Source: Cystobasidiomycetes sp. EMM_F5
Taxonomy: Eukaryota
DNA length: 64,000 nt
Direction of reading: 5' to 3'
NCBI GenBank assembly: GCA_051047955.1
Contig: JBPGPT010000003.1
Location: 744,001-808,000, forward strand
Numbering within the stretch: position 1 is the stretch's first letter; each line of letters starts with the position of its first letter. Positions 8,369-60,700 of the stretch are shown here, piece by piece. The position numbers and the translations under genes were made by a program. The notes beneath the pieces are model-generated. The model ran no database searches. It saw nothing but the letters and a program-made list of their open reading frames with translations, and was not told the origin of the DNA.

Positions 8369-11685
<3,317 letters not shown>

Positions 11686-12205
11686 CTGTGCGAGTACCTA
11701 GTGGAATGGAATGGGAAATCCAGCAGTGCCAGGGAGTGAGGAGGCAGTATGGCAGACTTGTACACCGATATAGATCAGACTGTGCCATTCATGGCTGCCA
11801 TCAAAGCTGCTCGCTCTAGGATAAAGGCTGCTAATCCCCGATCGGCTTCGTGGACAGCTGCTGCTGCAAGTCCATGGTTCAGGCGCGCACCAGCTGCTGA
11901 TTTGACAACTCGGCCCTTTACACGGAGCCTTGTCCTAGTCAACTAATTCCATGTCGGTCGAGCACAAAATGGCCGATATGTTAATAGCACGTTGACAAGC
12001 TGGACTAGAGCAATAATTGCCAGAGAAGAAGCCAGAGGGAGCACTTTGCAATGGAGAGCCGGTATACTTAAGCTTGTGATAGTATGCGCTTGTCAAACCA
12101 TGTCAAGATGTTCTTGCTTGTTACGCTGATTACGGGAATCGACATGCCCATTGAGCGTGTAAACTGCCTTCGCTTAACTTTTGACACAACACATACGCAC
12201 ACAAC

Positions 12206-14034
12206 ATGGTCCAGCGCGAGCGAGAGGTTCGCAATGCGGCTCGCAGAGAGCACCTGCACCAGCAGTCCAAGAAGGACAAGCGCAAGGCAAAGCTGCAACG
12301 TCGTATGGATCTGAAAAAGGCAGAGAGGAGTGATGCGGCGGGCCAGTTGAGAGCACAGAGGCTGGCGACGAATGTTCCGAGAACGATTGAGAATACGAGG
12401 GAATGGTTGGGTGGGGAGGACGCTGTAGAAGAGCAGAGCGATGCAAATTCAGTCGACGAGGACGATGAATCCTACGACGAAAATATCGATAGTGATGTCG
12501 ACGAGCAAGCTCGGAAAGCAAAGACTGCTGCCAAAGGAAAGGGAAAGGCAGTAAATGACGACACTGCAGATACCGGTGACGCTAGGACTCGTCCAGTGCG
12601 AATCAAAAGTGGGACTGGCGAGGATGGGGATGACCTGGTACTCGACATGGCAGGGCTGGAAGATCTATTCCCTCCGTCCACAGTTGACGATGCTCTCAAC
12701 GCGGACGGAAGTATCCCACCCCCAAAACCCATACTCCTCACTACGTCTCCTCGTCCGCATAACCAAACATATTCCTTTCTGCAGGAATTTGGTAATCTTC
12801 TGGGAGGGAAAAAGTATGCTCACTTCCTGCCAAGAAAGCACGCCAGGTTTGAGCTGTCAAAAGTGTGCGGCTGGGCTGTCAAGAGAGGGTACGGCGCAAT
12901 CGTGGTTGTCGGAGAGGATCAGCACGACGAGCCGGGTATGCCACATGAGCTTCAACACATGCGACATGCTAACGGTAATCTCTGCAGCCACCATGACCAT
13001 ATCCATGCTGCCAGACGGGCCATGCGCGCACTTCCGCCTAACGTCAATCGCCTTGCACAGACAGATTACAGTAGGCACTCGTCACCCCAATCCGTACGCT
13101 CGACGCAATCACTGAACTGACTATCATCTAGGGCTCTGCAAATCCCACTTCTCACATCCCAGAACTTGTGCTTTCCAACTTTTCAACCCCACTAGGCCTG
13201 TCGACCGGTCGACTCTTGCAATCTCTCTTCCCACCTCTTCCCCAGATCATCGGTCGACAAGTAGTAGCGGTACACAATCAGCGCGACTACATCTTTTTCC
13301 GTCGATTCCGATACATGTTTGCGTTGCGCGAGACGGAGGCGTCGAGGAAAGCTGCCAGAGATCAGGGAAGGGACGAGCATCTAAGGACGAGAATGCAAGA
13401 GATTGGACCGAGGTTCACGATGAAGTTGAGGTGGATCAAGAAGGGAGCTCTGGCGGAGGGCAATAGTCGAAGAGTCGGCAATGAGGGGCTGTTCAAGGGC
13501 TTGGATTTGACTGTATCTGCATCTGGCAGCGCGGAGGATGGTGCAGTGGAGGAGGACTTGACGCAACAAGAACAGGATGACGAAGCTCAGGCACAAGCGG
13601 AAATGTTGCTGCAAACAGGCGAGATGATGGCGGCTCATCTGAATGCTTCAGCTGGGCAACTAGGCGAGGAGGTGGCCGAGTCTAACGCACCGTCCGCTGG
13701 ACAGCGTGCCACTACCGCGGTCTCCGAAGATCCCATCGCTGACAACGATGCTGCCGTCACGCAGAGAATGCATTCGAAACTTCCCGTCATTGAGCGAAAC
13801 CGACCACCTCGAACACACGACGCAGAAGGTCGAATTATGATACCTACATTCGAGCTGCCTACAGAGATACCGAGAGATGAACTGCCGCATCATCGTAAGC
13901 TCAAGAAAGGTGCGAGCGTGCTCGATAGTCTGGCTGCACACGTCGGGTACGGGAGAGGCGGCACAAAACGCAAAGCTATGGAATGGGAATGGTCACCGAG
14001 AATGAACGTCAGCAGGCGCAAGTTTGCTTTGTAA
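12206..14034 (+). CDS. RPF1: Brix-domain ribosome biogenesis protein, Rpf1-like
   Basis: [82 protein letters not shown], terminal RRKFAL*. Confidence 0.92.
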
Positions 14035-14131
14035 GGCGCAGGGCGAGGCGAACCTCCTATATCACTTTGCTATGGTGGACTTTCTCAAATAACAGGGTCA
14101 AGCGTGTGGTAATGGCTACTGCTGAACAGTA

Positions 14132-15068
14132 TCAAATCGCGCAAACGGTCAATGAGGCAATTTCGGCCAGCACTTTGTTAATTGGTGCTGTATTCGAAAT
14201 CTGACACAAAACTATTCCATTTCGAGTGCGTCTTGGATGGTCCAGTCGTCTTGTCAGCATCTTCCGTGATCACTACTTGCGATGCTATCATGGATACGTC
14301 ATTCGTCGAGAGTGTCAAGGTTGTATCCGTAAACTGCTGAACCTGGAAACATTTTGTGTTCGATGATTAGCATCGCCGGATCCCTTCATAAAATTGGCTC
14401 TTGCTACTTACTAATACACATTCCCATTTCCCTTCCTTGAGCTTACACTTGATGGCATCTACGTATGTTTAGACATCAGAGTTTCTCCGCATACTGATGG
14501 TCAGCAGAGTGACTCACTTTCATTTTCGCCTGCCACAAGCTTCTCCTTGAGCTTTTTCTCCTTGCTATCGAGCTTCACTGCATGACGAAGGGACGCTCAG
14601 CACTCGTATAGAAAATTGAAACCCCTTTCATCAATTCTGGCAGTGCGAGGGTGACAACCAGGCCTGCCAGCGCTACGCGAAGGACAGAAATCACTCACGG
14701 TCCCATAGTAGAGTCGTTGAAGATCTGCCAACGGCTTTCTCTGCACTAGCTATCAAGCCATCGTCAATGAGATCTTGCACAAGGGTAATCTTATTTAGAG
14801 CTGGCAAAGCCAAGCTTTTTGCTGACTTGAAGGCGTTTCTTAGGTTTGCAATCTGCCAGATGCTGGTAGTGATCAATTCCGTCGACTCTGCCGTAGACTT
14901 CTGGCTATTGCCTCCCCCTCGTCCGTTTTTTCTCGCCAACAGGTATGGATGTGGAGCCGGAGTCGGACCGGGAATGGCAAGCGGAGCTGCAGAACATGCC
15001 AGCATGCTGACTTCGAACACCAAGACCAGCTTGGCGATATATACGTGCACCTGTGCATGCAGTCTCAT
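14132..15068 (-). CDS. Secreted protein, array member A (unknown family)
   Basis: Hydrophobic N-terminus ending ...MLACSA-APL. Spliced via GT-AG introns to a 47-nt exon (14412-14458, NAIKCKLKEGKWECVL) and a last exon containing KWNSFVS, ending at TGA 14132. Confidence 0.7.
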
Positions 15069-15292
15069 AACTCGACTCTGTCGTCACGAGCTTGACGTAG
15101 ATTACCGTGAATCTTCATTCGGTGAGGTGTCTGCGGTGTAAATGCTGTTCGCCGGCGATGTATGATCACAGGAACCGTGATGGGACAGACTTCGCACTCG
15201 ATGCCTCAATGCACTGAGAGTACGGGCGAGATACAGGCAGGAACAGTAGGACCTTTCCACGTCTCAAATTCCGTCAACATATCTTCAATTTA

Positions 15293-16067
15293 CTATGTCG
15301 TGTTTCTAGCTAGCTTATCAGCGTCCGATTTTAAGGCGTCCCTTGCTTGTACCTGTAACGAATTAACAGGAGTTGCTGTGATCGTAATGCTGCTACCCGT
15401 TATTGATGCCGTCCCGATCTTGGATATCCATGTCTTTTTGGGTTGGGCTGCAATATTAGCCTGAGAGAATCGGGTTGATTAGCTTATTCACATCCTCTGT
15501 ATATACACCTTGTACGGACCAGTGTGCACGCCCCTATGGAGCCTGAGAGCTTGCACTCTATTATTCCTGCATTGCGCAATCAGAATTAGCCACGTACACA
15601 GCTCTGTCCGTTGTGGTACCAACCTGCCATAGTCGGGTTCGCTTTTCGAACGAAACTACCAAAGCCCTCAACCAAGTTTGACTTGTTATAAAGCAGATAA
15701 TCTATATTCGGAGCGTGTCAGCAATACAAACAGGTCGATGTACAGCACAATTCTTACTAGCAATCGTCACAGTGTTGGTTACAGATCCAGTAACTACAGG
15801 CATCGGGCTTTGCGCGACTATAAACGTATAGCCATTCTGGAGCTTGCTGACAGATATACTGGCGCTACCCAGATCGCTGAAATAGCCGAGAGAGCTCACG
15901 CCAAAGACTGCAGGGTCGGGCCGACCCCAAATGGCGACTTGGGTTGTCTTTGCAACAGAGATGGCACGATGTACATTGGGAGCAGCGGTTCGACTAGGAA
16001 AGGGTGCAGCAGTGGTGATCTGAAGGGCAGGCAGGGCTAGAAGTATCAGCGGCAATAGCATTTTCAT
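15293..16067 (-). CDS. Secreted protein, array member B (unknown family)
   Basis: Signal peptide MKMLLPLILLALPALQITTA; VAIWGRP; 47-nt exon 15520-15566 (GIIECKLSGSIGACTL); last exon ANIAAQPKK...ARNTT*. Confidence 0.75.
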
Positions 16068-16443
16068 GGTTTGAAGGGAAATTGGAGAGAGGATATACTC
16101 TGAAATGAAAAGGCTAGTAATAAACGCGGAGACTTCAGAAGGAGCACGCTGTCACGCTGCAATCATGTCTACCAGGATTGCACCGTCAGTGTCGTTGCGG
16201 CACTGGTCCTGTTGTGGCAGTGCATCACGTCACCGCAGTCAGATTCGACCGTACTGGAGCTGGACTTGCAGACTTCCGCGGTGTAACATTCTGATCTGTG
16301 AAGCGGGAGAAACAGGAGTACACTATTCATCGCGAAAAGTATTGCATAATTACCCGCCTTCAAGGCTGCTTAGATAAATGCAATACAATCAGAAGACAAG
16401 CGGGTATGCCTGAGTCATCGACTACTGGAGAGGATGATTGAGT

Positions 16444-17358
16444 TTAGCTCATTCTGGCAGGTGCCGCAGTTCGCCTCGGCAGGTCAGCAGTTGGCGCATT
16501 ACGAGCGCGCTTGGCAAGAGTCTCGTCTTGATGCTGTTGCACCTTGCGCCCGTGCAGCTTCTCGCGACCGTCTCTCAGCGATCGCTTCTCGTTCGCGCCG
16601 ACGGCAGTATCAACGAAGTTCGCCCATGCTCCAGCCTGGTCTGAACCGACATACGTTGCGATCACTGAGCTGATGGTCGCAGCTAGATCCGTCCTCTTGT
16701 CTTGTACACTACTGCCGTTCCAATCATACTGATAGTATACATGTGTCAGTAAATGCCTGGTGCGGATAGGAGAGGGAATGAGCAAAGTATTTACTAAGGT
16801 ACAGGGTGCTGACGAAGGGTCGGTGAAAGAACATTCCAGCATGTCTGCAGCGACTTCGTTTAGAGCAAAGAGGCAGCAGTACTAACGAACCCGACGCACC
16901 GAGCATTTCTTGCGGATTGCCCTCCTCGTCGACCACTGCCAAAGCTTCCCACATGTAGGTCATCGTGCCGAACGTCGCATAAACAGCGATATCTAGATTT
17001 AAGACAAGCTCGTCAATTGGGGAAGATTTCATGACTTTCGGAACGAACCTCCAAGAGAGACCGGTGCTGTTGCTTCCGCTGACAGTTTGGCAGAGCCCCA
17101 CATGAAAGCTCCTGTAAGATAGCTGTATACAAAGCCTGCTTTGTTAGCTAATTCATCGGGGTTGATGATGAATTGGCCAGCAGGTCTCCAATAGCTGATG
17201 GTCGTTACACTGGTAGTGGGGTAGGTGGTCTCTGCTGAGCTGCGCTTGTCGAGTAATTTGACTGCACGTCTCGATACGGTAGGAGTGACCGTGTCTGCAG
17301 CTACAGAGTGCAATGCCAAACCTGCAATAAGGGAAACGGCCAGGAGTACGTGAGGCAT
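16444..17358 (-). CDS. Secreted protein, array member C (unknown family), 3 introns
   Basis: Signal peptide MPHVLLAVSLIAGLALHSVAA; KR site; ISYWRPAGQFIINP; EMLG|DMLECSFTDPSSAPCTL|YDWNG; tail with KR sites. Clearly paralogous to 17879-18711. Confidence 0.85.
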
Positions 17359-17878
17359 CGTGGACGAGAAACACAGAATGAAAAGAAGTTAGCAAATCTA
17401 AGGAAGGTGAAGACAGTAAATAGACACTGGCGAGAGCGTTTGCTGCGGTGTCCATTGTTACTGTACCGTGGGTGAAAGCTGTCCTTTACGACAAAAGACA
17501 TCGGCATCCTTACGACGTCTCACCGTGAAGGAGCCGAGCGTAAGAACCGCACCGGGCCGGAACCGCATTAGTAAGTTACAATATCTGCGAGATTTTCAGC
17601 GTTATTCAGCCCGAGATTTGGACAGCCCAAGATTTGAGATTGATGTAAGCAATTCAGTTTTTTTATGCAAAATGACTCAGTCACTTAGCACGTTGTCAGG
17701 ATCAACTGGAACGGGAAAGGACAATGGGGTTGAAACCGGATAAACAATATTCGACGGATCAAAAATCAAGGAGACTTGCGAATTGCCATCAAGGCTGCCA
17801 GCAAGCAACGTGATCTGAAAGATAGTGGTGATTGTCACAATGCTGAGTGATAATCGGTGGAAGATCTACCTATTGTAT

Positions 17879-18711
17879 TCAGTGCAATCTGGCAGGTGCT
17901 GCAGTGCGCTTGGGTAGCATTGCAGAAGGCGCACTCCGAGCGCGCTTAGCAAGGGCCTCGTCTTGACGCTGCTGTACGGCGCGCCCCTTTAGCTCTTCTC
18001 TACCACCTGGAAGCGAACGCTTTGCGTTTCCACCAACGGCAGTACTGACAAAGTACGCCCAGCTGTTGCATTGACCAGCGTTGCCGCCGGTGGCAGACAC
18101 GGATGTGATGGAGGCAGAAAGAGTCGTTCGTTTGAACTGTCCATTCTCATTGCCTTGCCAATCGAACAGGGTGCATGGCGCGGTCGCAGCGTCCGTGAAT
18201 TTGCAATCAAGCATGTCTAAGCCGTTGCCTTAGTAAAGTTTCCAGAATGTAGCACTGGCAAGCCAAGCTCACCAAGCATCTCTACAGGATACCCTGACTT
18301 ATCCACTATGGCCAGGGCTTCCGTCATATAGGTTGTCTTGCCCTGTGTTTGATAAAAGACCATATCTGAGGCAAGATCTCGTAAGCTTTGTTCGCTGAGA
18401 AGACGTTTAAGGGGCTCAGCATTACCTCCTAGCAATGCAGGTGCCGTGGCATTTGCAGATAACATTGCAGTACCCCACATGATTGCAGCGGTCGTACCAC
18501 CTATTACAAACCCTGCTTTGTTCTGTAGATCATCCGGATTGATGATGAATTGTCCGGCTGGACGCCAGTAACTGATCATTGCTGCGGACGTTGCGGATGT
18601 TGTAGACGTTGTGGATGTAGCCGAGGTTACAGATCGTCGTTCTGGGCCAATCTTGGTGGCAGCCGCCAAGAGACCATAAGAAAGAAGTATGATAGGAAGC
18701 GTGCAGAGCAT
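17879..18711 (-). CDS. Secreted protein, array member D (unknown family), 2 introns
   Basis: Signal peptide MLCTLPIILLSYGLLAAA; RR site; ISYWRPAGQFIINPDDLQNKAGFV; EMLG|DMLDCKFTDAATAPCTLFDWQG; tail ...LAKRARSAP...PKRTAAPARLH*. Confidence 0.85.
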
Positions 18712-19334
18712 ACCGGACGGCCGAGTGCGGAAGGTGAAAAGAATGTAGTAACTTAAGATATGGCTGGCTCGCGTACCTGTCTCAGGCTGTTGATCTGAAG
18801 CAAGCCGTGGCTCCCTGACAATCCGTCACACTGTACGGAAACGGGGCAGGCTGTGAAAAAGCAGTGGAAGAGATCCGCAACGGTGACACAGGGCCGGCTC
18901 GGTACCACCGGGACGTCCACGGTCATTCGCATATGCTGACGAGAATCTCACAGAGTCGAATCTTCTTGTGTTATCGAGCCAGAAGTTTCGACTCGATGGT
19001 AGCGTCGGCTTTATTAGGACTGTATATGCAGTGTCAAGTGGGAGCAAGACAACGATAGCCGTGCTTGCCGACGACTGTCTCCGGAGCACCTGGTGCGATA
19101 CTGTTGGACAACTTTGAGGACAATAGCTGCAATGCCCAAGCAGACTAGTCACAGTGGTTATGTAGTGGCACAGACTGGTGGGTTCTTTAGATTGGAAGAA
19201 TGAGAGAATGAGCATCGCATGACGATGATCGGTACTCTGCAATTGCTTATAGCAATGTAACGCTGCCAATCGGATCTACGTGTGCGCACACTGAAGGATT
19301 CTATTCAGGTTCGCATGTTCAGTCTGTAAATACG

Positions 19335-20303
19335 TCAGACCGCTTCTGTTGACAGGGCCCTATTGTGCAGCTTCTGCCATGAGCCTGAAGATGTACCTAT
19401 AACAGATCCAGTTGCACTTGAAGCCACTGACATACCGGTTGCCGAAGATGTGCCTGTTGTGACAGATCCAGTTGCAGTCGATGCGATTGATGTACCCGTT
19501 GTATTTGAGCATGCAGAACTCTCTGCGCCGCCGCTTTGCTGTCCGCCTTGGACAGTTTCCACCTGTACTCGCATGACACCGGCTGCCCATTGAGCAAGAT
19601 CAGCTGGAGCTGCATCGGCCTGTTGGACTGGAATAGCAGAAGACTGTCCCGCGATTGTTGCTGAATATGTGGCCTGAGTGTCGGTGCCATCATAGTCGAC
19701 CATTATACAAAGTCCTGCAGCTACCTCGTGAGTGTTGCATGCGATGAGATCTAGTGATTCACACCGCAATCAGTAAGTAGGGACAGCAAAGCGAGATCAA
19801 AGGTCGAGCTTACCGAACAGTTCTCCCTGCTGGCCGCCAGGACCGATGATGCCGATAGCTTCTGCAGCTACATCCTGCTGCAGAACCATTACATCACCTA
19901 CGGTAGCGACCGTGTTGATGGGGTTGCCATTCTTGCCTTTGCCCTGAATCGTCATGACACGTTCGCCAGCGAGCGTAGTCGCAACGCCGCCGGTGCCAAG
20001 AACGTACCAGGTAACATCTGGCCCAATGTCGATGAAGGGTGCCACGGTGGAGTCGAAAGCTTGACGCTGCGGGCGCACCCAGCCGGTGACGAAAGATCCA
20101 GCTGTGGCCGCCTGTGTCGTACTGGCCATCACCATTTCAGAGCGGTCTAAAGACCTTAGCACATCAGTGTCGGCAGTAAATAGCAGACTAAATTACCCAC
20201 GCGCTAAACGATGGGATGCAGACGTCTTGGAGGGCAAAGGGGCAGCATTGACATATTGCCGCAGTAGGATAAAAGTGGAGAGGATGTGCGGAAGACGTGT
20301 CAT
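19335..20303 (-). CDS. Secreted protein, array member E, with Ser/Thr-rich tail
   Basis: First exon MTRLPHILSTFILLRQYVNA-APLP (ATG 20303); VTGWVRP; EAIGIIGPGGQQGELFG|DLIACNTHEVAAGLCIMVDYDG aligns with C and D. The 3' end is uncertain (possible further intron). Confidence 0.75.
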
Positions 20304-20897
20304 GTTCTGATCTGATCTATTTATCGCGGACGCGCCGTAGTGACAAGCCTTGAGTTAGTGAAAAACGCCAAAGATCCGTTCCAGACGGATGACAGTGCGG
20401 GGGCGAATGGCAGAAGCAGAGCTGCCGTGGAGTGGACTATGCAGATCGATAAGGCGAGTGAATATTGACCGAGTTAGCTTGAGCAGGCCCCATCCACGAT
20501 TCCCTGCTGACATCGACCGCATAACAGCGGGGTTTCGGGGGATAGCACCGCAGCCGTGTACAGCGGTGCTCAACATCCCGGACACGGACCGTAGACGACA
20601 ATGGCAAGACGGACGTCTGCATCGTATCGAGGGGTTGTTTCTTCGCTGTCTTGTTTGTCGTTAGGCTGTTTCGACGTTGTTGGCCAGGTCGGCTCGTCGT
20701 GTCTTGACGTTGCTGCTGCATGATGCAAACAAGCGTGTAATTAGCTAAACGAGTACTCATCCGCTCCAATCAATCAGTCGGGCTGCGCACATCGAAATAC
20801 CAAGATTCGTCAATTGCTTTATCGTACTCTGCGCACTCACTCGTTGCATCTGTCGACGACGACGACGACACCTTGCTCACTCTGGACATCCACGAGC

Positions 20898-21634
20898 ATG
20901 TCTGATCCAGTACTAGCTAAATCAGCATGGCTCAGCTCGTACATGTCGCAGCACGCCGACACGCTAGTCGCGTACGTTTTGCAGCACTTGCAAGCCAAGG
21001 CCAGCAATGGCAAAGGTCGAGGCGTCCAGGCGAGCGACATCAAGAACATCAAGATGACGCAAATATCGTCACAGAGCATGAAGATTGAGTACTCCGATGC
21101 AAGCGATGGCGGCAAGGTCAAGAATGTCGAGATTGCATTTGACCCACCGCTCGATGGCTTTGAGGAAGTACGGCCGCGACTGTTGCAGATGAAGAATGAC
21201 GCAGAAGAAGCGATTGGAATGGTCAAACGCCCTGTAATATCTACTTATCGCCTGCCAAGAGCACGAAGGACCATACCTATCGTTATCGCTATCCTCTTTT
21301 GGGTGGGATGCGCGTTGCAAGAAAACGACAATGGCTTCTTCGGCAGGATCCGCAACCTCACAGGCGGATATTCGACCGTAGAGTACACTGGCTACTTCAT
21401 GGTGAGCGAACTCGACATGACTGGATGCTGTTCCTATGCTGAAATTGTGGCCAGGTTGCGGTGCACACAGCTGAAGCAGCCTATCAATTCTTGAATTGCC
21501 TGAAATACTCTACACCATTCTTCCAAACCGTGATGTGGGTCCTAACGACTTTTCTCGTTGGATTCCCCGCTCTTTCCGAATTTCGAAACTTGGTCCGCGA
21601 GGCCAAAGTCGCCAGTGTCAGCAAAACGAAGTGA
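20898..21634 (+). CDS. DUF2470-like domain membrane protein
   Basis: YMSQHADTLVAYV...IAFDPPL.GFEEVRPRLLQMK pattern followed by hydrophobic segments; one intron (~21402-21454); second exon VAVHTAEA...GFPALSEFR...TK*. Confidence 0.7.
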
Positions 21635-21721: not shown

Positions 21722-23348
21722 TTATGTCAAGATGGCAAGACGCACTTCTCTGCTATTATACACTTGCGTGAGCGCCCACAGCATGGTCAAGAACGAGCAC
21801 GCTGCAATCGGCAACACAGTCTGTCGGATGACTTGACTACTCTGTAGACCCCTCGGCGGTACTAGCCGGCGATCGAATGCATATGAAGGGGATATTGGCG
21901 ATAGGAGATTGTCCTCTGGTGGATGTTGCGCAGCGTTGACGGTAGCACGTAGCCGCAGAGCATTAGCCCATTCTGCTGTGTGGGAGCTGGCACCTGAAAC
22001 GTGAAGGAAGCGGAGATTGGATGTAACCCTATCAGGATGGATTGCATATTCAGCCTGGGATGCTGCAACATCTGTACATGAGACTGACCAGATCTGCACA
22101 GTATTACTGATTGCTGATGTCAAAGCACAGACCATCCAAGCGGGAAGCTGCAAGTCTTCATTGCCAAAAAATTTGTTTACTGTAAAATGCGTAAGAGGCC
22201 AGCAGATGACTTGCAGAGAGACCTAAGCATGGCGAAGGATGAGAACGGAAGACTCGATTGAGAGCCAAATTCTCACCAGACGGATTATCGCGGCGGGTAA
22301 AGGATAGTAAACAAGCCATCGACGTGTCAGACCGCGAGCCATCGAGTGGCAGTAGTTTCCAGACAGGATTGCCCACATTGCGCTGAGAAGCCACTCAAAA
22401 CGTCGGGAAATCGCAACATCGGTCACATAGCTGCCGTTTCGGGATGTCGCCCTGTACCAATACAGGGATTGCGGTAATGGAAACACGGCTCGAAATACGC
22501 AGTATGCGGCGCCTGTGGAGGCCGGAACAAGAGATAGAAGCTGCAAGCTTACGAGCAGTACCTGCAGTACATACGGAGACAAGCTCTCCGCGTCATCAAT
22601 CGCATGAGGTGGAGATCCGGTGTCGTGATTTGCATTGTTTTCAACAGTAGGATGTTGGGTGCTTGGGAAACGCGGGGGTACCTGTGAATTGAGTCTGCTG
22701 CCTTTGTCGGCACTATTGATCACCGAGTCTGCTGCTCTGTGGCCGCTTTCCCCTCGGAATTTGTCGACGTGCGAGAGTGCATCTGCAGATATATTGCCAG
22801 GGTTCGAGACTGTCTGATTTTGTAAGGAAGGGACTTGTTCGGTCTTTGACTTTAACTTGTAGAGACGGGACGGCACCACTGTAGCATCGCTCGAGTCCGA
22901 CAGAGAACGCTCTCTGAAACGGGGACGAAGTGTGCCCATCTCTCGGAAACGGTATGAGGAATATGAGCCATTATTTGCGATGTCGTCTTCGTTCAGCTGG
23001 GGCAGAAGTATCAAGGGCTCTGCATTGCCGTCACCCTCTTCATGCTGTACCGACGAAGCTGCCCGTTGCTGTCGGTGCGACAGTCCTCTCAAGCTTGTAG
23101 CAGAAGCTGAGCGAATTGGCGCCAGATTGGCGTATTTGGGTCGGCAGTGATAGCAGCTTTCATTGACTCGTCAGCAGTCCTAGTTCTTGCATGCTACAAA
23201 CGCTTTTGCCAGTCGATTGCAGAAAGAGCCGTCCAAATTGTTCTGGACCTGACCTTGGGAAAACGAAGTCACTTGTCTTATTTGCAACCTCTGCTCTGGC
23301 GGCCCCACCTGAAGCTAACCCATTTCTACACTGCCGTATACCGTCCAT
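21722..23348 (-). CDS. EOS1: ER membrane protein Eos1 (N-glycosylation/oxidative stress family)
   Basis: LSAMWAILSG...GLTRRWLVYYPLPAAIIRL, LPAWMV, QIW|VTSNL, VLPIAACSFLTML. The 5' exon and start are uncertain. Confidence 0.75.
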
Positions 23349-31793: not shown

Positions 31794-34651
31794 TTAGGCA
31801 TTGCCAACACATTTCTTCGGAATAGTGAAGTCGTTTGTGCGAATGCCGCCACCCCAAGGTCTGCAAGTAGATGTAATGAGTGTAGTACATGGTTAAACAA
31901 CATTGCGCCGACTTACGTTCCACCAGTCAGAGTAGCATCCGGACCAAGCCCTCTCTTGCTGAACGCTTTCCAGATTGTGCAGTAGTTCTCACCGCCAGTG
32001 TACAGTTCGTCCGCTTTGAGAATGGCGTTGCGATGATCTTGGAAGCTGGGTCGACACTTCTGAGCCTTGAAAGCATCTACGACAAGCTGAATGGCGTAGG
32101 CGTTGCCATGGCGAGGGTAAGATCGACCAGTCTTGTCGGATGTAGCGTAGAAGGTATCAAAATTCGTCGAATTTGCAGATGGTGGGAACAGGTCTTTCAC
32201 GAATCCATGCTTTTCGATGAGCGATTCGGCCATCTCGAAGAGCATGACTGCCATGACCTCGCCAATGGCGTGTACACCCCAATATCCTGGCTGATCAAGC
32301 GTCTTGTAGGTAGATGGGTTGTGAGTCATGTTGGTCGAGTATGGGAATTTGCGAATGCCATTCTCGCGATGTGCAGCCCATTCACCCATGGTGAAGTCAC
32401 GGACATCGGCAGAAGCCATCCGGATCATGGTGGCAAAGACTGAGGGACATGCCATCGGATCAGCACATGACACAGTGACATTACTTCTGTACTCACAGTC
32501 GCCGTAGCCTTCGCCCATACCGCCTGCTTCTCCCCAGCCAAGACATCCGGAGTTCGCAGGGCCACCTGAAATGCAATACGTCAGTCGATTGTCCGTGTTT
32601 TGACTAGACAGGCCCGCCCACCTGTCAAACGAGTCGAGATGCCGTGCGCTAGAAGGCCACAGATCAGATTTGTGACGCTATACCGCCTGTGAGCTGAGCC
32701 TACCATATTCATGAATCACAATACCAGCTTCCAGATCACCATCTGCATATGGGATGTTGGTCTGTGTCGTGTAGCGAAATTAGCTTCTATGCATGCATGT
32801 GTTATTATTGGCGTACACTCCAGCTGTACATGCGCATCCTTGGTCTCTGGCCATCAGGTGGTGTGGCAAAGTTGGCATTGTTCATGCCAGAACCGTCTTG
32901 GGCCATAGCCACTACTGCATCACCTCCAAGTCCGCCTTTGCCAAAATTATGTTCCCTGAATCCCATTCTCGCTTCAGCGTGCGTAACGAGTGGCCGACAG
33001 TAGGAGCGGCTTACTGGAAATTACCGCTAGCTTCGTCGAATCCGTATCCGTGGAAAAGATCGTGAATTTCGTTACAAGTGTAGAACAGTTCGGTGATCGA
33101 GGCATTGATGTACGATGCTGGCTCGATCTGGTGACCTGTGCGGTTCGCCTTTGGTCCCCAGCCAAGCTTAAAATCGAATGATCCATGATCGCTTTGTGGA
33201 CGGTAATTTGTCTAACGCGTCCGGTCAAATCGATACTCTCCAACTTTACATGCTGTTTACTTACCTCAAATTGAGTTCCACCAGAGGGGTTATCCTGAGC
33301 AAATACATTGTTTCCACGTGTATCTTTAAACGTGGCGCCCTTGTCGAGGTCTGAACTCCAACCAGGCGCGTACAACGCCTCGTCGTCTTCGTTGTGCTTG
33401 GTGGCACTGCTTGTAGACCCATGATGACCAGAGCTGCGACCGGCACCATAAGGAACGCTATGCCAACCTACAGGCGATGCATCCTTATGTGCGGGGTTCT
33501 TCAGCAACTCGCGCTTGCCTTCCGTTGGGTCATTGACTCCCCAAGGATAGACGCGGTAGGTGTAATCAGTCGCAGGCGTAGATGGCTTCGCGGAAGCAGA
33601 GGAAGTAGGCGCATCCCTCTGCCAGTCGACGACCATGAGCGGTGTAGTGACATCCTCGGCGTTCGTATCAGCCGAGACATGAGCCTCGTACCAATTATCA
33701 TTCATCTCGTACTCGAAAGACCATACTAATGCAACTTGGTCAACGCCTTCTCGCTGGACATAAGCCAATTTAGCGGGAACACCGGATTCCGCAATTGCAC
33801 CGGGTGCGTTGTGTATAGTAATCTGAGTGACACCAGCTTCGGCATGTAGAGACTGAGATATAGTCATCTGGTCCACCAACTCATCTGTAGAGCTGAAGGA
33901 CGCGACTAGCCGTGGATCTGCGTGCAGAATAAAGTTGGCTAGTGCGACACGAGGGTCGATGGGTACGTGCTGATCCGGTGTGGCCTCGTCCGCAGACATG
34001 ACACAGGCCTTGCCGCCAAAAGAAGGTGCATTTCCAAAGACGAATTGTGAGACACTGGATGCCAATCCGCCAATCGCTCTCCTCTCGCAGGCTAGGGACG
34101 AGGTCGGAACGAAGGCCGAGTCACCAAAGCTGACGACGGCACCAGTGAGAACGTCTACATTGACATTGACCAGCGCGTCAACGATGTCTTTTCCATGCAA
34201 TGTTTGAACCTGTAATCACACGGATGCATGTGGCGGATACTATCGGTCAGCTGTTTGGGCATTACTGTATCTGGGTGAGGCGACGACTACGCACGAAGTG
34301 GGCATGGATAACGGATCCAGCAGCCGAAGAAGTGGTGGACTGCAGTCGGAACTGTTGCTTGGAATGTAGACTCTGCAGGAACGTTTCCGCGATAGCAATG
34401 CCGCGAGCGGTTGCTGCATGCTCGCCACTCTGAAGTGACGCGAGAGTCACCAAGTCTGGCGAGTTTGCGTACGAGAACTGCGAGTTGAATGCGGATATCG
34501 CGTCGCTGTCATGATTGTAGGCAGAAACGCGGCGAGCGGTGGTCCCGCCAAAGTTTAGTGAAGGCCGCCCTTGTGCATGATGCGGGTGGTGCACTGCCGA
34601 CACTCCGGCAGCAGCAGCGATGGCTCCCAGGGCTGCAAGTGAGGCTCGCAT
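31794..34651 (-). CDS. Secreted fungalysin metallopeptidase (M36)
   Basis: Signal [39 protein letters not shown]; zinc motif [38 protein letters not shown]...[11 protein letters not shown]. Confidence 0.95.
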
Positions 34652-36820: not shown

Positions 36821-37815
36821 AGCTATGTGCAGACAGCATTACAGACAGCGTCATCCTTTTGGCGGACTTGCGCTGGGTCGCTCCGTTTGCCGAATCATGC
36901 CGGAGGTGATCGAGAAAGTCGCTGACTGCACGTACAGCTGAATGACCCGTTCGCGTGAGTCAATTCGCGAGCTTTTCTAGCTTTCGATGGTACCATGATG
37001 CTTCTGAATGCATGCTGCGTCTGCTGACGCCCAATCGCAGCTACCCTTCTACTTGCGATACCCTACTGACGCCCCGGTGGCTGGACTGATCTTCTCGTGA
37101 AAGCAAGCGATTACACCGCAACAGCCAATATTCTCCAAAGCAGGGGCAATTAAAACGTTCTAGCGGTCATTCCGGTCGGGGATGAAACGTCTCGTGTGTA
37201 TGACGAACGCCCGAAGATTTTCACTAACAATGACGGGCCGCATGCGTAAGAAAGGATGAAAGAAGATATAAACTGATTGTGGATGTTACAGTAAAGGCGT
37301 ATTTGCCAATCTCTGAGACGACCGTACCCTTCTCTCACTTCTCGAATAACATACACGTCAGATCGCTTTTGGCCACATTGCTCCTTCCTGCCGTTAACGA
37401 CGCGTTGGACTGTCAAGCGGCGCGACTGTTTGGGTGTTTTCCTGCCCGCCGGGCCTGCGGGAATTGCCGCCAGACTGGCATTAGGTGCGGCCAAAGGGCA
37501 ACGGAGACGAGAGAGAAGCAAGTGGCAGCTAGCGATGGCTGGACAGCCCTTCACATAGCGAGCTTCTACTCCTCGCTGCATCTATTTACCTCGCTGACGT
37601 GCGCTGAAAGGGGTGCGGGTGTCATGCGGGCTAGCCTGCGGCTCACGATCAAACAGGGTCCAAAACCGACCAGCCTTGTCTTACATTTCCGCCGAGGAAA
37701 CTCCAGCCTTGTTTCTTGGTTTCCCAGAGCTCATTCAGAGACGCATCCTTGCTCAGCCCAGCTTGAATATCACCTGGTCCTCATCGGAAACCCTTCAACC
37801 TTTACGTCGCTCGTC

Positions 37816-39269
37816 ATGTCTCTCGACCCGCATATCGGCGTGGTTGTCGGCCAGTCATTCTCCAGCCTGGCGGAGCTACAGGAGTGTATCAAGTCGACCG
37901 CACGCACTCAGGGCTATGTGATGAAGCGCTACACCTCCAATGCAAACACTCTCAAAGAAACCGGCTATTGCGAAGCACGCTATCAAAAGGAGAAGAAGAA
38001 TATAACCTGCCCTGGCGGCTACCTGGCATTGAAGGATGCTGAAACTGGCATCTGGTGCGTCGTGTTGATGAAGGAGTCTAAGCAGCCCGGAGCTTCTCCA
38101 GCTGCCATACAACGTTCGCTGACCCCTGTGTTTAAAAACGCAGGACTGTTTGCACGGCCAAGGATCATTGCCCTGCCTGCACACAACACAGGAAGATTAT
38201 GCTTAGCAAGTCTGTATGTCCGCGCTACACTGCTTTTGCATCTAAGCTGGGCGAGTCGCTCATAATGTTTCCTCGCTTTACCCCTTTCTGTTTCTCGCAG
38301 ACCTCGGCCAACAGGAAGACACCCGCACCGGCAAAGTCGCGCAACGTGTTTCACGTGTCTGACGATGAGGACTTTGATGTCCAGCCTGCTAGCAAGAAAC
38401 GCTTCGCATCGTCTGTTACCCTCAAGGCTGACACCAGTGGCGTCACCAACGGAACCGATCGCGTACGCGCCAGCACCGCTGCCGATCCTCAGGACTCTGA
38501 TTATGTGCTTCCCAAGATCAAACTTCGCCTCAACTCCATAACTCCGCCACACGAGGAAGCTCCAACCTCTGCTCCAACCCCCACCATTGCCATCTTTGAC
38601 GAAGCTGGACTCGAGATCCCAGAAGCCAAGGCTGGCAGAGTTCGTAGAGCATGCGTCAGAAGTGTGAGTGCAAGCTATAATACCCTGATCACATCGCGCA
38701 AGACCAAGACCAAGACTACGACCAAAGCTCCAATCAAGCCTAAGCCTCGAGCTCCTCGAAAGTCCAGGATCCAGATCAAGTCTCCTGAACCCACATCCGT
38801 AGCGGCCTTGGCGCCCGTTGTCGCACTAGCACCGCTACGTATACGAGCAGGTACGACATCTTCCACAGCCCCTTCTCTCACGTCGGCCAGTACGCCGACT
38901 TCTGCAGGAACTCCAATCAGTGCCACTCCAAGATCGAGCTTCATGCTCAGTGAAGTGATAGGTATCCGTCGATCTAGCTTCTCCGGTACAGATCCAAAGA
39001 CTGGCGTAGACCGCGTTGGCGCCTGGCTCATCAAGAACAAAATGACAGCAGAACAGGTGGGATACGATGTCATGCACGGCTTCAATGGGGTATACTATGT
39101 AAAGCGTAAAATGGGAAGACGCGCTCAGGTCACAAGCTTGAATCCGGCCGACCACTTTCCTGAATACTTCAAGCACGATGGGACCACTTACGGCAAACGC
39201 AAGCGAGGCCACAGCGCTATGCATGAAGGCGCAAGCAAGCCAGCAACTCTTCGTCGTTCCTCCTATTGA
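37816..39269 (+). CDS. Putative nuclear protein with N-terminal FAR1/MuDR (WRKY-GCM1)-like zinc finger and basic disordered tail
   Basis: Spliced N-terminus VGQSFSSLAELQECIK...GY...YC-x12-CPGGYLA...W|TVCTAKDHCPAC, joined in frame through a second intron to the long Lys/Arg/Ser/Thr-rich ORF ending at 39269. Confidence 0.6.
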
Positions 39270-48506: not shown

Positions 48507-51500
48507 ATGAAGTCTATTTCACAAACTGCAGACTCTCCACGAGCACTGCACCCTGAAAATACCGTTCAATCAGCTGTGGACTATCTCGACAAGCAAGAAG
48601 CTCATCGTGCAAGCAGTCACAGCACGCTCGTCAGTCCATATTTAGGAGACCGTGATGTCGGTCTTGACATCCGCCAGAATACCGCCTCAGTGTCAGACAA
48701 GCCCACATTATTGTCATCTGACTCTACTGAAAGCCAAGTATCTACCGAAAGCTGGATCAGTGGTGGCAGCTCACCCTCTCGAAAGCAATCAGCCGGCTCT
48801 TCTGCTTTTTCTGCGTTGACTTCACCCACTAATTCGGTGATCTCTCCAACTGTCGGTCAGCCTGAGGTATCGGACCGCAGCCAAGATGCCCATGATACCG
48901 TTGTGCAAACGCACCTAGTGAGCACGACCCATTATTAGACGTTCGGCTTGACGACTGATTAATAACGTCAATGACTTTAGAAGAGACAAGAACATGTTGC
49001 CGCCCCCGGACAGCTTCCCGACTCACCTACAGCCGGCACGACTCAGTATGGTGGAAGAGGATTGAGCACCCGAGGCCTAATCTCACAAGCCAGGCAGTCA
49101 TCGGGATTTCCATTCCCTGGCCGGCTGTCCCCCTTGGCCGAAATGCCATCAGCAGCAAGACAAGCGCAGGATCATGGCAATGACACAAACACAAACAATA
49201 CGGCAATAGTGCACGAAGCATCCATACCTGCATCGAACCTGCTGACAACATCTGCAACATCGCCGAAAAAGAGACCTGGCTCTTTAAGCGATCCATGGCA
49301 ACATCATGATGAGTTATTGGGACCTGCAAGTAATACTGGAGTAACTTTCACGGCCGCTCAGAATGCCAATCGCGCGCACCGCGGGCCCGCAACCGGCGCG
49401 CCTCTCGACACTCCGAAGAGCATGAATCTGGATAGACGTATCTCAGAACCCTCAGCAGAGTCTGGACTCGCTCAAGTGACCACGACTGAGCCACATCTTG
49501 TTGAGCCAGCACTTCCCTTCGGCCTCGCTCCGCCGTCTCGCGCACAGATGGCCTCGCTAGCCCAAGCTAATTTGTCGGTCCAGCCGCAGGCGCCTGCCGT
49601 AGCAACTTTGAGCCATCACGTAAGAACGGTCAGTCCAGTGTTCCATCCGCACGCGTCCACCAGATCGCAGTCGCCACGGTCATCGCGTGCACAGTCGTTG
49701 ACGACTATGTCAACACCGTCCTTTTCGGCCATTTCGAACGCGCAACATAACGCACTTTCGCGTCCGTTGGATAATGCTTATTTCGGTCAGTTAGCTCCCG
49801 GTTTTGTTCTGCCTGTCGGTCTTGCCGGTACTCCCGCTAGAATGGGGGCAGACCTGAGTAGTGCCATTCAGCCAACGCAGCATTCCGAGGCTTCTGCCGA
49901 TGGCTCTGAACGCTCCCGCCCCCAGGCAGGCCTTCTGGGTGGCCGCTACGATCATTTATCGCCTAGGCATCGCGCATGGACTGAAAGCAGGGCGCCGTCT
50001 CTCAATTCCGTTGACAATGTTGCCTCTGCTGCCGAGCTGCTACCTAACCGTGTTTTCAGTCCTGGCACTTCTCAACCGCCGCAAGCTTTTCAAATCAGAA
50101 AATCTGGTGGCGGGATTGCCAACATTGGCGAGTATGCGGATTCGGAGCTAGGGTATATAGCAGGTCAAGGCGAGAGCCGTCTCAGCCTTGATGGTCTGCA
50201 ACACCCGAGCGGGTATAGCTCTGCCTATACAAGTGGGCCGCCTTCCATTTCTGACACATCGACCGCGGGCAACGAGGACATTACAACAATGTCAGTTCCG
50301 AATTACCAAACACTCTCTGTTCCCTGACTGACTATGATTGATTACGCTTCCGTACCAGATTCGTTGTCGGTTTTCCTGAGGATTTTCAAGAGCGTGAATT
50401 CATAAATATGTTCACATTTGCACGAGGCTTCGAGGCAGCGACCCTTAAGATACCAGCATCGACAGCAGCGACACGCGAACGGGATGCGGCGGCAGTTGCA
50501 GCGGTCTCGGCCATCGCGGCGACCTTGCCACATCGTAGCGAACACATCAAAACCCCGGAAGGCAAGCCATCCTCAGCGCAATCAGCGTTCATACCCAACA
50601 GTGTGGACATCGTGCGATCCCAGCGAACTGACGATGGCTACGTCAACCTGCGCCATGACGTCCCAGATCATATAACGTACGACGGGCGTTCCGACCGGAT
50701 GCCAGCTAGTCAAACCGGAGAGAAACATCGGATATCGGCTGCATTGGCTAGTGCAGCTGCGCACGTTACAGCAACAGCGCAGGCAATCGGAAGTCACAGT
50801 AATCGTAAGCAAATCATTGGGTTTGCGAAATTTCGTACTCGCGAAGATGCAGTGGAAGCGCGAAATACTCTATCTGGTCGAAGAATAGACAGCGAACGAG
50901 GATCAGTGCTGAAGGCTGAGATTGCAAAGAAGAATCTTCATACCAAAAAGGGCATAGATTCAGCCTCGTCACTGTCAGCTGTTCAGGCCAACCAGTCTCC
51001 GTTTGAGTACGATCAGGCCACACATCGACTTTCGAGCCGATCATCACGGCCGACCATTGGTGTATTGGACGACTATTTGTTAGAGCGACAATCCTCTCGC
51101 GGACGCTCGTTGCTCATGGCACATTCATCACATCCCCACGGTTGGGCCATTAACAGGGAAGTGCCACTTGGCGATCTAGGGCTTTCCCTAGCAGACACAG
51201 GTCCGATCCAACACCAGAATCCGTTAGGCAGCAACTCGCATCAGCGTTTTGTAGACTCAGTAGACACCCATCTTGCTGGGCCTGTGTTGATGGCGAGGCC
51301 GCTCCGCGAGACAGGTCTTGACCTTGCTGAATCCAGCACATATTACGACGCTACGCCGATACTGGCGTCAGCATCCGCCAATACTCCAAATGAAGGACGT
51401 CCGACCGTTCGAGCCCTGCCGGAGCCAGCGACAGGCTTCGGCGCCAGCGCTTATGCTGGCAACGATGTAACCTCGAGACGTCATCCACCATCAGCGTTGC

Positions 51501-52430
51501 CCACTAATCAGCTGTACTATGCAGGATTTCAGGAGGGTGGTGAGGGCGGCCGCGACACGATCAGGCATGGCGAACCTCCAATAGGTCTGCAAGGTCTGAC
51601 CTCGTCCCCCAGCCATATGGCGCATGTAGCATCAACTGTCTCTACTCCAACAAGTACTTCCTATCCTGGTCGATATCCAAATGATCCTCGCGTATTGAGT
51701 GCAGCCGATTTAGCAGCAATTCATTCAGGAGATATGCGCTTTGCGCGAATGCAGCACAAGGGCGATGACAACATGCCGATCGCGACGCTGTATGTTGGCG
51801 GTCTTCCAGCGGTCCTGCCCCATCTTACAGGACCACTGTCGGCATCACATCTTGAGGATACCCTACGTAACATATTTTCCCGTTGTGTCGGTTTTCGCCG
51901 GCTTTCCTTTAGACACAAAAGCCAAGGGTGAGCGAGGTACTTCTGTAAACAGCCACTTCGTGGCTAACTGGCTGCCGGCGTTAGTCCAATGTGTTTCATC
52001 GAATTTGAAGATGTCCCTAGTGCTACCAAAGCTCTGCAAGAAAATTACGGGCATACGCTCGGCGGGCTCGTCAAGGGCGGAATTCGATTGGCTTACAGGT
52101 GAATGCCCTTCCATACATTTCCATGGCCGAACTGACGCCATTCGTAGTAAAAACCCGCTGGGCGTTCGCTCTTCCGCCATGACCTCCGGACCCATTTCAC
52201 CCAGCGCACTATCGCCGACCTACTTCGCAAGTGACGCTATGTATGCCGCGTACAGCTTTGACCCAAAATCGACTCCCACGATGGCTAGAAGGTCGCATGA
52301 AGAAGGTCGCGATGCGCGGCACAATGCCTCTGGCGCCGTCCTTCCTTACCAAGCTCAATTACCGTATTATGTGCCTAGACATCCGGATACTGGCAATGCT
52401 GCTGATTTCAACAGAATGCAGGGCGCATAA
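48507..52430 (+). CDS. Whi3/Scw1-like RRM RNA-binding protein with long disordered regions
   Basis: RRM1 ITT|IFVVGFPEDFQEREFINMFTFA..GFEAATLK, QIIGFAKF, VLKAEIAKKNLH; RRM2 TLYVGGLP, GFRRLSFR, PMCFIEFED, GGIRLAYSKNPLGVR. 5' exons uncertain. Confidence 0.85.
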
Positions 52431-57127: not shown

Positions 57128-57725
57128 GTTTGACAATTGAGTGGTAATCGAATACGTTGCTCAGATTTCCTGTAGAGCTGTGAAAAAGAGAGTAGAGCCG
57201 AGATCAGCGCATTGTGCGGTCATTATGTAGTCGTCTTGTTGCGGAGATTGGCCGACTCCCTTTGGCACATCCGCGGAGTTCACACGGTGGGCAAGTGAAT
57301 GTATCTGCGATGGAAGTCTTCCGAAAGTGCGGATATGGATGGCTCTCGCTATGGTTTGCCGACACATTGTTCGACAGGTCGGTCCGGGTGGAAGTGCTCT
57401 TTTTGCCCTGAAACCTTCAAGCTTAGCATGCTGTGCGCAACGAGCATTACCACACGAGGTGTAGCTCAAGCAAAGGGTTACTGTATTTAGTTATAGGCAG
57501 GTCAACCAGGAGCACATTGCAATTGGCATATATCGCTAGTGCTTTTATTCGGCTTTGGAAGCATTGCAGGCAGGGGTTCAGCACCTGGAGAACGCTTGTG
57601 CTGTCATGAGCTTCTGACGTTGATTCTTGGAAGTCTTCAGGTATGTTAGCGTGCGGCCAGACATGATGCGAATCCCAGACTCCCGCCGGCTTTCTCTAAG
57701 CACCAAACGGAATGACGCTGCACCA

Positions 57726-60700
57726 ATGGCAGAGCCGTTTCCGCAGAAGCCACGTATCATCAGGCAGTATGGGAAGCGTGCCAATCGAAGTTTGCAGAGT
57801 CGAGCAGTAATAGAGCAGCCCCGGCCTGGCCCATCAGAAACTCCAGCAGTAGCTACCACCTTGGACATAACTCCACAAACTCCCGCGCATCGAGGTTCTG
57901 AGCACCCATCTACGCTCGACGCTGGTCGGCAGTCGAAACGGAACTATGGCTCCTCTGCCGAACGAACCGGTTCAAGTGTCAGGCGTCGGAGGCGGCGAAC
58001 TATACCGCAGGACGCAACGGATACTGAGAGTATCCACACCGACTCAGACGTCAGCGAAGGATGTGTCGTAGTGGCAGCTTCCCGCCATAGGATAGTTGAG
58101 AAGCAAGACGTGCCATCTGTAGGGACGGCTGCAAGCTATTCTCCACACGCGGCCGCACAGTCTCGGCTAGCGAAACGGCAACGGCACATATCTCAAAGCT
58201 CTGACGAAGACAGTACTGTGATAGATGCGACCGCCGCAGGTTCTGCAGCGTACGCCATCCGTACTTCATTTGAGACGCATGGAAGCGGGCACTCTGTTCC
58301 ACTGGGATTAGCATATCCAGCAAACACGGCTGGGGAAATCGACAAGACTGAAGGAGCTGCATCGTCCTGCGTCAATACTAGACGCAACAATAGTAACGCA
58401 GGAATTCGTTCAGCTGCACGGAGACCAGGCATAGTCAGCCGGATGTCAGGCAAGACTGGGATTCAGCGGAGCGACAGCGAAAGATGTAAGGAACTTCTTC
58501 TGCAATATACCACGAGACTAACGAACGCCATAGCTCTACTGTCCTCGCCTGAGCGTCCCGGCAAAGGGCTATTGCGAAGTGGCTCAGAAGGGAATCTTGG
58601 CAGTCTAAGGAACCGCAGATACCGGGCCCCGTCGGATGCTTCATCGACACCAGGTTCACCTTCTCGTCACCTTGCTGCTGCTCAGTCCGCATCAGACGTG
58701 CCATCGGTCGAAGACAGTACAGCTACGAACGTGCCTGTCGATTCTCGACCTAGTAGTGACTTTCGTTCGAGTCATCGGGCTGCCACATCGGTCGCTCCCG
58801 TCCGCATTACGTATGCTCAGTCTCGCAGCTTTCGTGTCGAAATCGATTTGGCTGCGGAACAACCTGCAGACAGCTTGAGTAAAGCTGGGTCTTTGTCGCT
58901 ACTGACGGTCAAGAACAGTTACAATGACCTTCGACAGCGTCTCAGCCTAACGCGTTACGACACTTTCGACGACGACGAAGATGAAGACGACCAAGAGGTA
59001 ATTAGCTGTACTTTATTCACCGGACGCACACTTATGCATGTAGTGTCACCAGGCATCTCAGAGTGATTTGCACACAATCAATGACCTTAGATCGGCTGGC
59101 GATAGCAAGGCTTTTGCCGATGAGATGAATTACCTCTTGGATGGCTTCGGCAAAGGTCATTCGCTGGGACTCCACAGAACGAGGTCAGTACCGAGTGAAA
59201 ATTCGCAGAGTGAAAACACGCATCAGTTTCTGATGAATACCGTGCGACAGTGCCATCGAAGTTCTAAGGAAGCTTCGCGATAATGACTTCCTGCGAAAGC
59301 TGAATACGTATGGCTATGTTGACGTAGTATACAATTGCTTTGTAGCTACAACTACGGGACAGAGCGATCGTGTAAGTGGATCTACGCACGATTGGAAGAT
59401 AATCTCTGACTTCCACCGCAGATCCTGGAGGTAGCGTTAGCAATACTTGTCGGGCGATTCTCACGAGACAAGAAAGCATCTGCGACTTTGGTGACCATGA
59501 CGCAGAATGATAGCACCTCTAGCTGTATTGAGGCGTTGGCCAAGTTGTGCTTGCGCCCGTGGAGCATACAATCTCTAAGCACTTGTGCCGATCTCGACAA
59601 GAGCGACAGACGCTCCATGAATGCATTGCAAGACGTCGCTTCAGACTGGGGAATGACTCACGACGTGTGTCTATACTACCGTGTTGTCACGGCGAGGTTG
59701 GCTAAAAAAAGTGGATGCACAGTCTTCGCTCACGCAAATAGCCATAACTGCTTTGGCCAACCTTGCTCCCATCCACATGCCCATTATTGTTCCTGATGAT
59801 GCCGAGAAGAGCACGCTTCCATATCTTACTGCAATATCTGCCGTATTGGATGGAGCCCAAATGAGCATGATTACTTCAGCCGAGATAACCAAATGCAAGA
59901 ACTGCTGTTACGCGTTGGAAGCATTGGCCACCCATTGCCAGCACCGCGGCCTTTTGCAGAATCTGGATAAGTACGCCAGCCGAATTGGACAGTCGCTTGG
60001 ACAGTGGTGGAGTATTTGCGCGACACGCTGCAATTTGATGAGCCCGGACGCGCACGATGCTGCCTCATCCCATTGTAAGTGGCGGTACCAGTGTGCATAC
60101 TCTGCCCGCTGACTGCAATGCCAGGTTTCGACCTAATGATCGCATTGATGAAAACGCTTGTGTCGCTGACAAACGTCTCCGCTGAGTACTGCCGTACTTT
60201 TCTCACTGACTCTCATGGCGTCATGTCAACACTGTTGAAGATCATCCAAAATGTGCAAGCTGCTGAACCCCAAACATACATTGAGAAGCAGTCTCACGAT
60301 CGAGACAGAAGCTCCGAAGACATGATGGGTCTGAAAAGCAACGCTGCAACATTCGACGTGCTCTGCCTGACCATCGGCTTACTGGAAAACCTCCTCGAAA
60401 ATTGCCCAGAGCACTCAGAGCATATGCACGACCCGGGTGAGTGGAACCGTTCGTGTGGAACTGCAGGCCTCCTTTTGCTCAACTACACACATCCAGATGT
60501 TGGTCTGTGCGCGAGGCAATGCGTCACGTCGTGCGAGGGCTCAGATCGTGGTACAGGCGTAGAATTATTGAGTCGAATATATCTGAGATTACATCAAGCA
60601 AACGAAGTCGTACGTCATCATTTGTATTATCCTCATATTTTCGACCTGAAGATGATGCATTCCTGCGGCTAGGTCGAGCTCCAATTTCTCGGCAAATATT

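Follow-up and report, generated by a model that had tools for sequence, protein, structure and literature searches.

Secreted effectors of Ustilago maydis are encoded in clusters of paralogous genes, and killer toxins are made as pre-pro-toxins that are processed at dibasic sites. A third point of comparison is the epiphytic biocontrol yeast Pseudozyma flocculosa, which is reported (PMC6079639, PMC10210494) to use lineage-unique secreted effectors between fungi. Here we describe a locus of Cystobasidiomycetes sp. EMM_F5 that resembles each of these in part: five genes in a row, A to E, on the minus strand at 14178-20303 of a 64,000-nucleotide (nt) stretch of the genome (assembly GCA_051047955.1, contig JBPGPT010000003.1, positions 744,001-808,000), which we call the window and to which all coordinates refer. 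On balance, we favour reading the locus, taken as a whole, as five old paralogues in tandem, members of an undescribed family that is lineage-restricted and codes for secreted pro-proteins with an extracellular or surface role. As in the clusters of U. maydis, the genes are small and arranged in tandem, begin with putative signal peptides, encode strongly diverged paralogues without a known domain and lie between housekeeping genes. Like P. flocculosa, EMM_F5 is a basidiomycete yeast of epiphytic habit with putatively secreted proteins that lack homologues elsewhere, and for both a part in interactions between microbes on leaves is plausible; the former belongs to the Ustilaginomycotina and the latter to the Pucciniomycotina, and function has been shown in P. 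flocculosa whereas the array is known from its sequence. The likeness to Kex2-processed pro-proteins such as killer pre-pro-toxins lies in a putative signal peptide, a pro-segment with a basic end and, in C and D, KR/RR sites.

The splice models of the five genes were built by hand and the products spliced by coordinates. Gene A consists of exons 15068-14699, 14577-14518, 14458-14412 and 14342-14178 (213 amino acids (aa); introns of 121, 59 and 69 nt), gene B of exons 16067-15758, 15701-15624, 15566-15520 and 15460-15293 (200 aa; introns of 56, 57 and 59 nt) and gene C of exons 17358-17049, 16992-16900, 16844-16795 and 16728-16444 (245 aa; introns of 56, 55 and 66 nt). Gene D, which has no third intron, consists of exons 18711-18426, 18365-18273 and 18216-17879 (238 aa; introns of 60 and 56 nt), and gene E, which ends in a Ser/Thr-rich repeat tail, of exons 20303-20201, 20146-19814 and 19750-19335 (283 aa; introns of 54 and 63 nt). 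After splicing, all frames close, at 200-283 aa, with GT..AG introns exclusively (13 of 13), 12 of them 54-69 nt long and one, intron 1 of A, 121 nt. Intron 1 of E has a second option of 42 nt (GTAATT..AAG); the 54-nt intron was preferred, being similar in length to the other introns and used in the NCBI model. In codon usage, each of the five spliced frames resembles the window's conserved genes (+0.08 to +0.18 bits per codon), and the remaining five frames of A-E score -0.36 to +0.09 bits per codon. The gene locations given in the initial annotation are borne out, except that A has its stop codon at 14178 and not at 14132, and the spliced products contain every motif string quoted there, for the Trp motifs, for the Cys pairs and for the late Trp segments of A, C, D and E. 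Two introns, intron 1 of D (18366-18425, 60 nt) and intron 3 of C (16729-16794, 66 nt), are stop-free and in frame, so that their retention would yield insertion isoforms and not truncation; programs that call open reading frames (ORFs) read through both of them, and the NCBI model of C reads through intron 3 of C.

The genes share an exon-intron architecture centred on a pair of cysteines. A phase-1 intron followed by a Cys pair had been proposed for the whole array, and we find it in all five genes at a fixed offset, the intron lying exactly 11 nt upstream of the Cys1 codon. The spacing of the pair is C-x8-C in A and B and C-x9-C in the other three genes. A phase-0 intron follows 6 nt past the Cys2 codon in A, B and C, leaving the Cys pair on an exon of its own (14412-14458, 47 nt; 15520-15566, 47 nt; and 16795-16844, 50 nt, respectively), while the corresponding segments of D (18167-18216) and E (19701-19750) form the first 50 nt of exon 3. 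A further phase-1 intron upstream is common to A, B, C and D. The Trp motif lies 79-95 residues N-terminal of Cys1 in A-E, and also in P0014, a relative from another assembly described below. We scanned both strands of the 64-kb window for this architecture, written as AG, 11 nt, Cys, 8-9 sense codons, Cys, 2 codons and GT. The scan gave five matches, four inside the array and the other at 22915, and block shuffles of the window averaged 0.57 matches, with at most 4 (n=200); as the pattern was derived from these same genes, the shuffle test is post hoc and measures clustering, and is no independent test. D lacks the third intron, and E fits the pattern only through the Val codon GTC after its Cys2 segment.

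Sequence comparison ties four of the genes together. Paralogy is plain for C and D, at 57% identity (E-value 4e-89). The other raw pairwise matches are weak, with E-values of 2e-5 for B and E (signal peptide included), 0.005 for D and E, 0.036 for B and D and 0.042 for C and E. In profile comparisons, an E-subfamily profile that drew on the relatives described below aligned with C/D at an hhalign probability of 94% (E-value 1e-7), and B stripped of its signal peptide matched the family profile with an hhalign P of 7e-6, a score reached by none of 60 shuffles. Judged on these matches, B, C, D and E are homologous, and we consider it very likely that the family is real.

The standing of gene A is different. 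The initial annotation had ascribed one layout to all five genes, which holds for gene structure and Cys spacing and is not supported for A at the level of sequence: the best blastp E-value of A against B-E is 0.6, and its match to the family profile (hhalign P 0.22) is equalled in score by 8 of 60 shuffles, neither being significant. The region between the Trp motif and the Cys pair also deviates in composition: helix-forming residues make up a fraction of 0.54 in A, as compared with 0.27-0.43 in the other proteins. Both observations would fit a gene that is no member of the family, either an unrelated neighbour or one that shares the small Cys exon alone, through exon shuffling. Such a gene would hardly be expected to show the same intron phases (1,1,0), a Cys-pair exon of 47 nt as in B and identical offsets of -11 and +6 nt, a pattern whose chance expectation is ~0.004 per 0.9-kb one-strand span (scaled from 0.57 per 128 kb); nor to adjoin the array directly on the same strand, to share with B and E an 'AAPL' behind the putative signal peptide, and to have 'KWNSFV' where C has 'AWANFV' and D has 'SWAYFV'. 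We therefore hold non-membership of A to be improbable and regard the gene as probably a very diverged member, the most diverged of the five, tied to the family only by exon-intron structure, Cys spacing, position in the array, 'AAPL' and 'KWNSFV', because its sequence and profile matches are not significant.

Relatives of E are present in three other assemblies, and every relative found is E-like. A word-index protein search with an N-half profile (A5) returned the window's own pieces plus a single foreign protein, P0006, which is 69% identical to E and has a longer cluster mate, P0008, both being Logan/ENA records. An exhaustive HMMER search with a C-half profile, run against 1.84 billion representatives, gave eight proteins at E<=0.001: three pieces of the window itself, two true relatives (P0014 and P0018) and three long multi-stretch proteins. 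P0014 is a complete E-like protein of 220 aa on a 1,105-nt contig, and P0018 has 133 aa. The three long proteins, P0015-P0017, were set aside as compositional matches, the one inspected, P0016, being a repeat protein rich in Ala, Ser, Gly and Thr. Other searches found nothing beyond these: the word-index search with exon 1 of D, against longer proteins, had no match; the same search with the N-half ORF of D returned the window's own ORF pieces alone; and scans of JGI metagenomes with profile A6 and with P0014 alone found no relative.

These proteins bear directly on the splice models. Spliced E aligns with P0014 at 53% identity over 192 residues, ungapped at the exon 2/3 junction, and P0014, P0006 and P0008 are all continuous across the point where intron 2 of E is removed (GE[LI]F-[DN]-[LI]IAC). 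P0018 carries a 23-residue in-frame insert exactly at this junction, the first and last residues of which would fit the retention of a phase-1 GT..AG intron. The ungapped relatives and the insert of P0018 at the same point thus give independent support to the key splice junction of E. C and D also match P0014 (E-values 5e-11 and 4e-10), in alignments that cross their own intron 2 and intron 3 sites. The called ORFs of P0006 and P0008 end one residue after Cys2 ('...GRCM'), where E goes on, which may reflect a stop codon, an intron or the end of a contig. As the splice models are hand-made, one could suppose that the frames are chance ORFs or decayed pseudogenes and that their common layout is a product of manual splicing. 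This is extremely improbable in our view, given that none of the 13 introns departs from the canonical form and that each of the five frames closes, that codon usage in A-E is gene-like, that the dN/dS of C and D is 0.15 (see below), that proteins of other assemblies match spliced E, C and D over exon junctions and that the NCBI annotation has genes at A, C and E.

EMM_F5 is a Magnolia grandiflora phyllosphere yeast, placed in the Microsporomycetaceae and without a sister genome among 27 genomes of Cystobasidiomycetes; its genome, annotated by funannotate (6,580 genes, 86.4% complete BUSCOs), may be the first genomic resource that this family of yeasts has (PMC12697161). The NCBI proteins of this strain for A, C and E match our translations exactly wherever the two overlap, and each of them is incomplete. 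The model of E (KAL7009523.1, EMMF5_001154, 150 aa) has the same 54-nt intron 1 and reads through intron 2 to a stop. That of C (KAL7009522.1, EMMF5_001153, 123 aa) covers the C-terminal part, with the N-half absent, intron 3 retained and Cys2 only, and that of A (P0005, 100 aa) is cut off in intron 1. The full Cys pair is absent from all three models. For B and D no NCBI product appeared in the N-half word-index searches or in the exhaustive C-half profile search. Since the locus tags of C and E are consecutive with D lying between them, D seems to have no model. The description of the array as hidden is thus apt, the models of A, C and E being truncated and D falling between consecutive locus tags. 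A secretome or comparative study resting on the recovered NCBI models would miss the whole family, and the practical value of the present work lies in corrected gene models for an under-annotated genome. These provide five candidates for what a leaf-surface yeast does outside its cells (adhesion, competition, interaction with fungi or algae) and a seed alignment with which to find the family in lichen and phyllosphere metagenomes.

C and D, the only pair that can be aligned at codon level, differ by a non-synonymous divergence (dN) of 0.31, with a dN/dS ratio of ~0.15 and a proportion of synonymous differences (pS) of 0.70, synonymous sites being saturated. The low ratio indicates purifying selection; similarity between C and D in DNA is limited to the coding parts. 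E is much closer in sequence to proteins from other organisms (53-69%) than to the rest of the array, and the duplications therefore predate the split from those organisms. Together, purifying selection and old duplications speak against a family in a fast arms race, at any rate where the one measurable pair is concerned, and the expectation of a rapidly diverging cluster finds no support in the values for C and D or in the identity of E to foreign proteins. The best conserved DNA between C and D comprises their basic tails and the first bases past the stop codon (16437-16626 and 17872-18061; 73% over 190 nt). In this tail region pS is 0.49, against 0.74-0.77 in the rest of the gene, a decrease that could stem from gene conversion or from extra constraint.

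These results also bear on whether the proteins are effectors aimed at another organism, be it the plant leaf, a host fungus or a partner alga or lichen, a reading that would follow from the analogy with smut and rust clusters. A tandem array of small, probably secreted paralogues without a known domain would suit such a role; so would the precedent of P. flocculosa cited above, and yeasts of the Microsporomycetaceae are reported as lichen associates (PMC10145395). The organism itself is a culturable phyllosphere yeast of the Cystobasidiomycetes, neither a smut nor a rust, and for it the smut/rust framing of the initial annotation does not hold. Unlike the clusters of U. maydis, the array belongs to a leaf-surface yeast and not to a biotrophic pathogen, its paralogues, C and D among them, are old duplicates under purifying selection, and E is well conserved in other organisms (53-69%). 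Each member has, besides, only two conserved Cys. On this evidence an effector role appears unlikely.

Secretion itself is likely, to judge from features of the N-termini. Signal peptides were assessed by hydropathy and by inspection of the cleavage site: all five proteins have hydrophobic N-termini, with 10-residue hydropathy maxima of 1.69-2.94, small residues precede 'AAP', and the probable cleavage site of A, B, E and P0014 is immediately followed by 'AAP[LFV]'. The Ser+Thr content of the proteins is 19-22%. C and D have a basic C-terminal tail rich in KR, and the tail of P0018 is basic as well and ends in 'KKR'. KR/RR sites number about six in C and about five in D (four to six), with a conserved one separating the Cys hairpin from the C-terminal part and others in the basic tail, and there are none in A, B and E. 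The Ser/Thr-rich tail of E, missing from P0014 and P0018, contains two tandem 60-nt units at 19402-19501 (40 nt aligned, 80% identity).

A putative signal peptide followed by a pro-segment, several KR/RR sites in C and D, with one between hairpin and C-terminal part, and a basic end in P0018 too, could also be read as the marks of mycocin- or killer-toxin-like pro-toxins, that is, of secreted antagonists processed by a Kex2-type protease. We rate this reading a little below that of effectors. A, B and E have no dibasic sites at all, and the array, unlike Kex2-processed pro-toxins, shows no repeat-peptide organisation and no sequence similarity to solved toxins or other solved structures; a literature search on mycocins in this group listed nothing specific.

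No known domain had been recognised in the array at first, and our searches agree. Pfam gave sub-threshold matches only for the ten exon translations (best 15.9 bits against a cut-off of 29.5) and no family at E<=1 for P0014, P0018 and P0008. NCBIfam returned nothing near its curated cut-offs, and the best matches to PDB sequences, with E-values of 0.75 for a single protein and 0.43 for a profile, are not significant. In the ESM Atlas, the C-half of D had no usable match; exon 2 of E scored up to 0.89 to clusters of viral hypothetical proteins with low recognition, which we rejected as a lead.

Put together, the features suggest how an extracellular or surface protein of this family might be made. 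An N-terminal signal peptide would take the product into the secretory pathway, and a short pro-segment would be cut off after Arg, in C and D at a Kex2-type KR/RR site. The mature chain would open with a Thr/Ser-rich stretch, probably O-glycosylated, followed by the conserved Trp(-Arg-Pro) motif. The core would be mainly beta-strand, with the two Cys, 8-9 residues apart, probably clamping a hairpin through a disulfide, and a Trp-containing C-terminal segment would end the protein, with tails that differ by member. For the function of such a protein we can offer a guess, which we hold tentatively and short of even confidence: a glycoprotein of the surface or extracellular matrix, serving life on leaves among neighbouring microbes. 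Host-translocated effectors of the smut or rust type seem less likely than this role.

Several results weigh against the reading of the array as five paralogous secreted pro-proteins, in addition to the sequence, profile and compositional data for gene A given above. The signal peptide of E is the weakest by hydropathy (1.69), and the hydrophobic core of A holds a charged K and E. The pro-region, said in the initial annotation to end in basic residues throughout, has a dibasic KR/RR end only in C and D; in A, B and E it ends in a single Arg. The upstream regions share no promoter word, with no 7- or 8-mer in at least four of five and no 9-mer in at least three of five. A surface or matrix role is without support from homology: no glycosylphosphatidylinositol signal or known wall-linking motif was seen in the proteins, and Pfam gave nothing. 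Finally, AlphaFold2 models of P0014 are of very low confidence, with a mean pLDDT of 39.0 from a 12-row alignment and 34.3 from a 5-row alignment. Both low-confidence models are mostly strands at residues 100-170, have a helix over the late Trp segment and place Cys156 and Cys166 on neighbouring strands, which may hint at a Cys hairpin in a beta-rich region. A bolder proposal would make the family a new fold confined to Microsporomycetaceae-like yeasts, its members being matured, disulfide-clamped factors secreted for antagonism or partner manipulation in phyllosphere and lichen communities, each paralogue with a target of its own; this we find doubtful, and about as improbable as the pro-toxin reading. 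Nothing that we found makes the family exceptional: it has the profile of a typical lineage-specific secreted family, new in itself and, as clustered secreted paralogues, of a familiar kind.

The array lies, as had been noted, between two plus-strand genes outside the family, both confirmed by Pfam: a Brix-domain (RPF1-like) gene at 12185-14034, with a Brix match of E-value 1.2e-11 on the ORF at 13132-14034, and a DUF2470 gene at 20745-21494 (E-value 4.9e-11). Rfam has no match within 13500-21000. Elsewhere in the window, long ORFs of 343-529 aa on the plus strand, at 37234-39269, 48981-51931 and 57624-59066, have no Pfam match at E<=0.001. On the minus strand, an SNF1-like protein kinase gene with kinase and adenylate-sensor domains occupies 8369-10773, and a fungalysin (peptidase M36) gene, whose product is probably secreted, lies ~12 kb from the array at 31913-34215 in two large ORF pieces.

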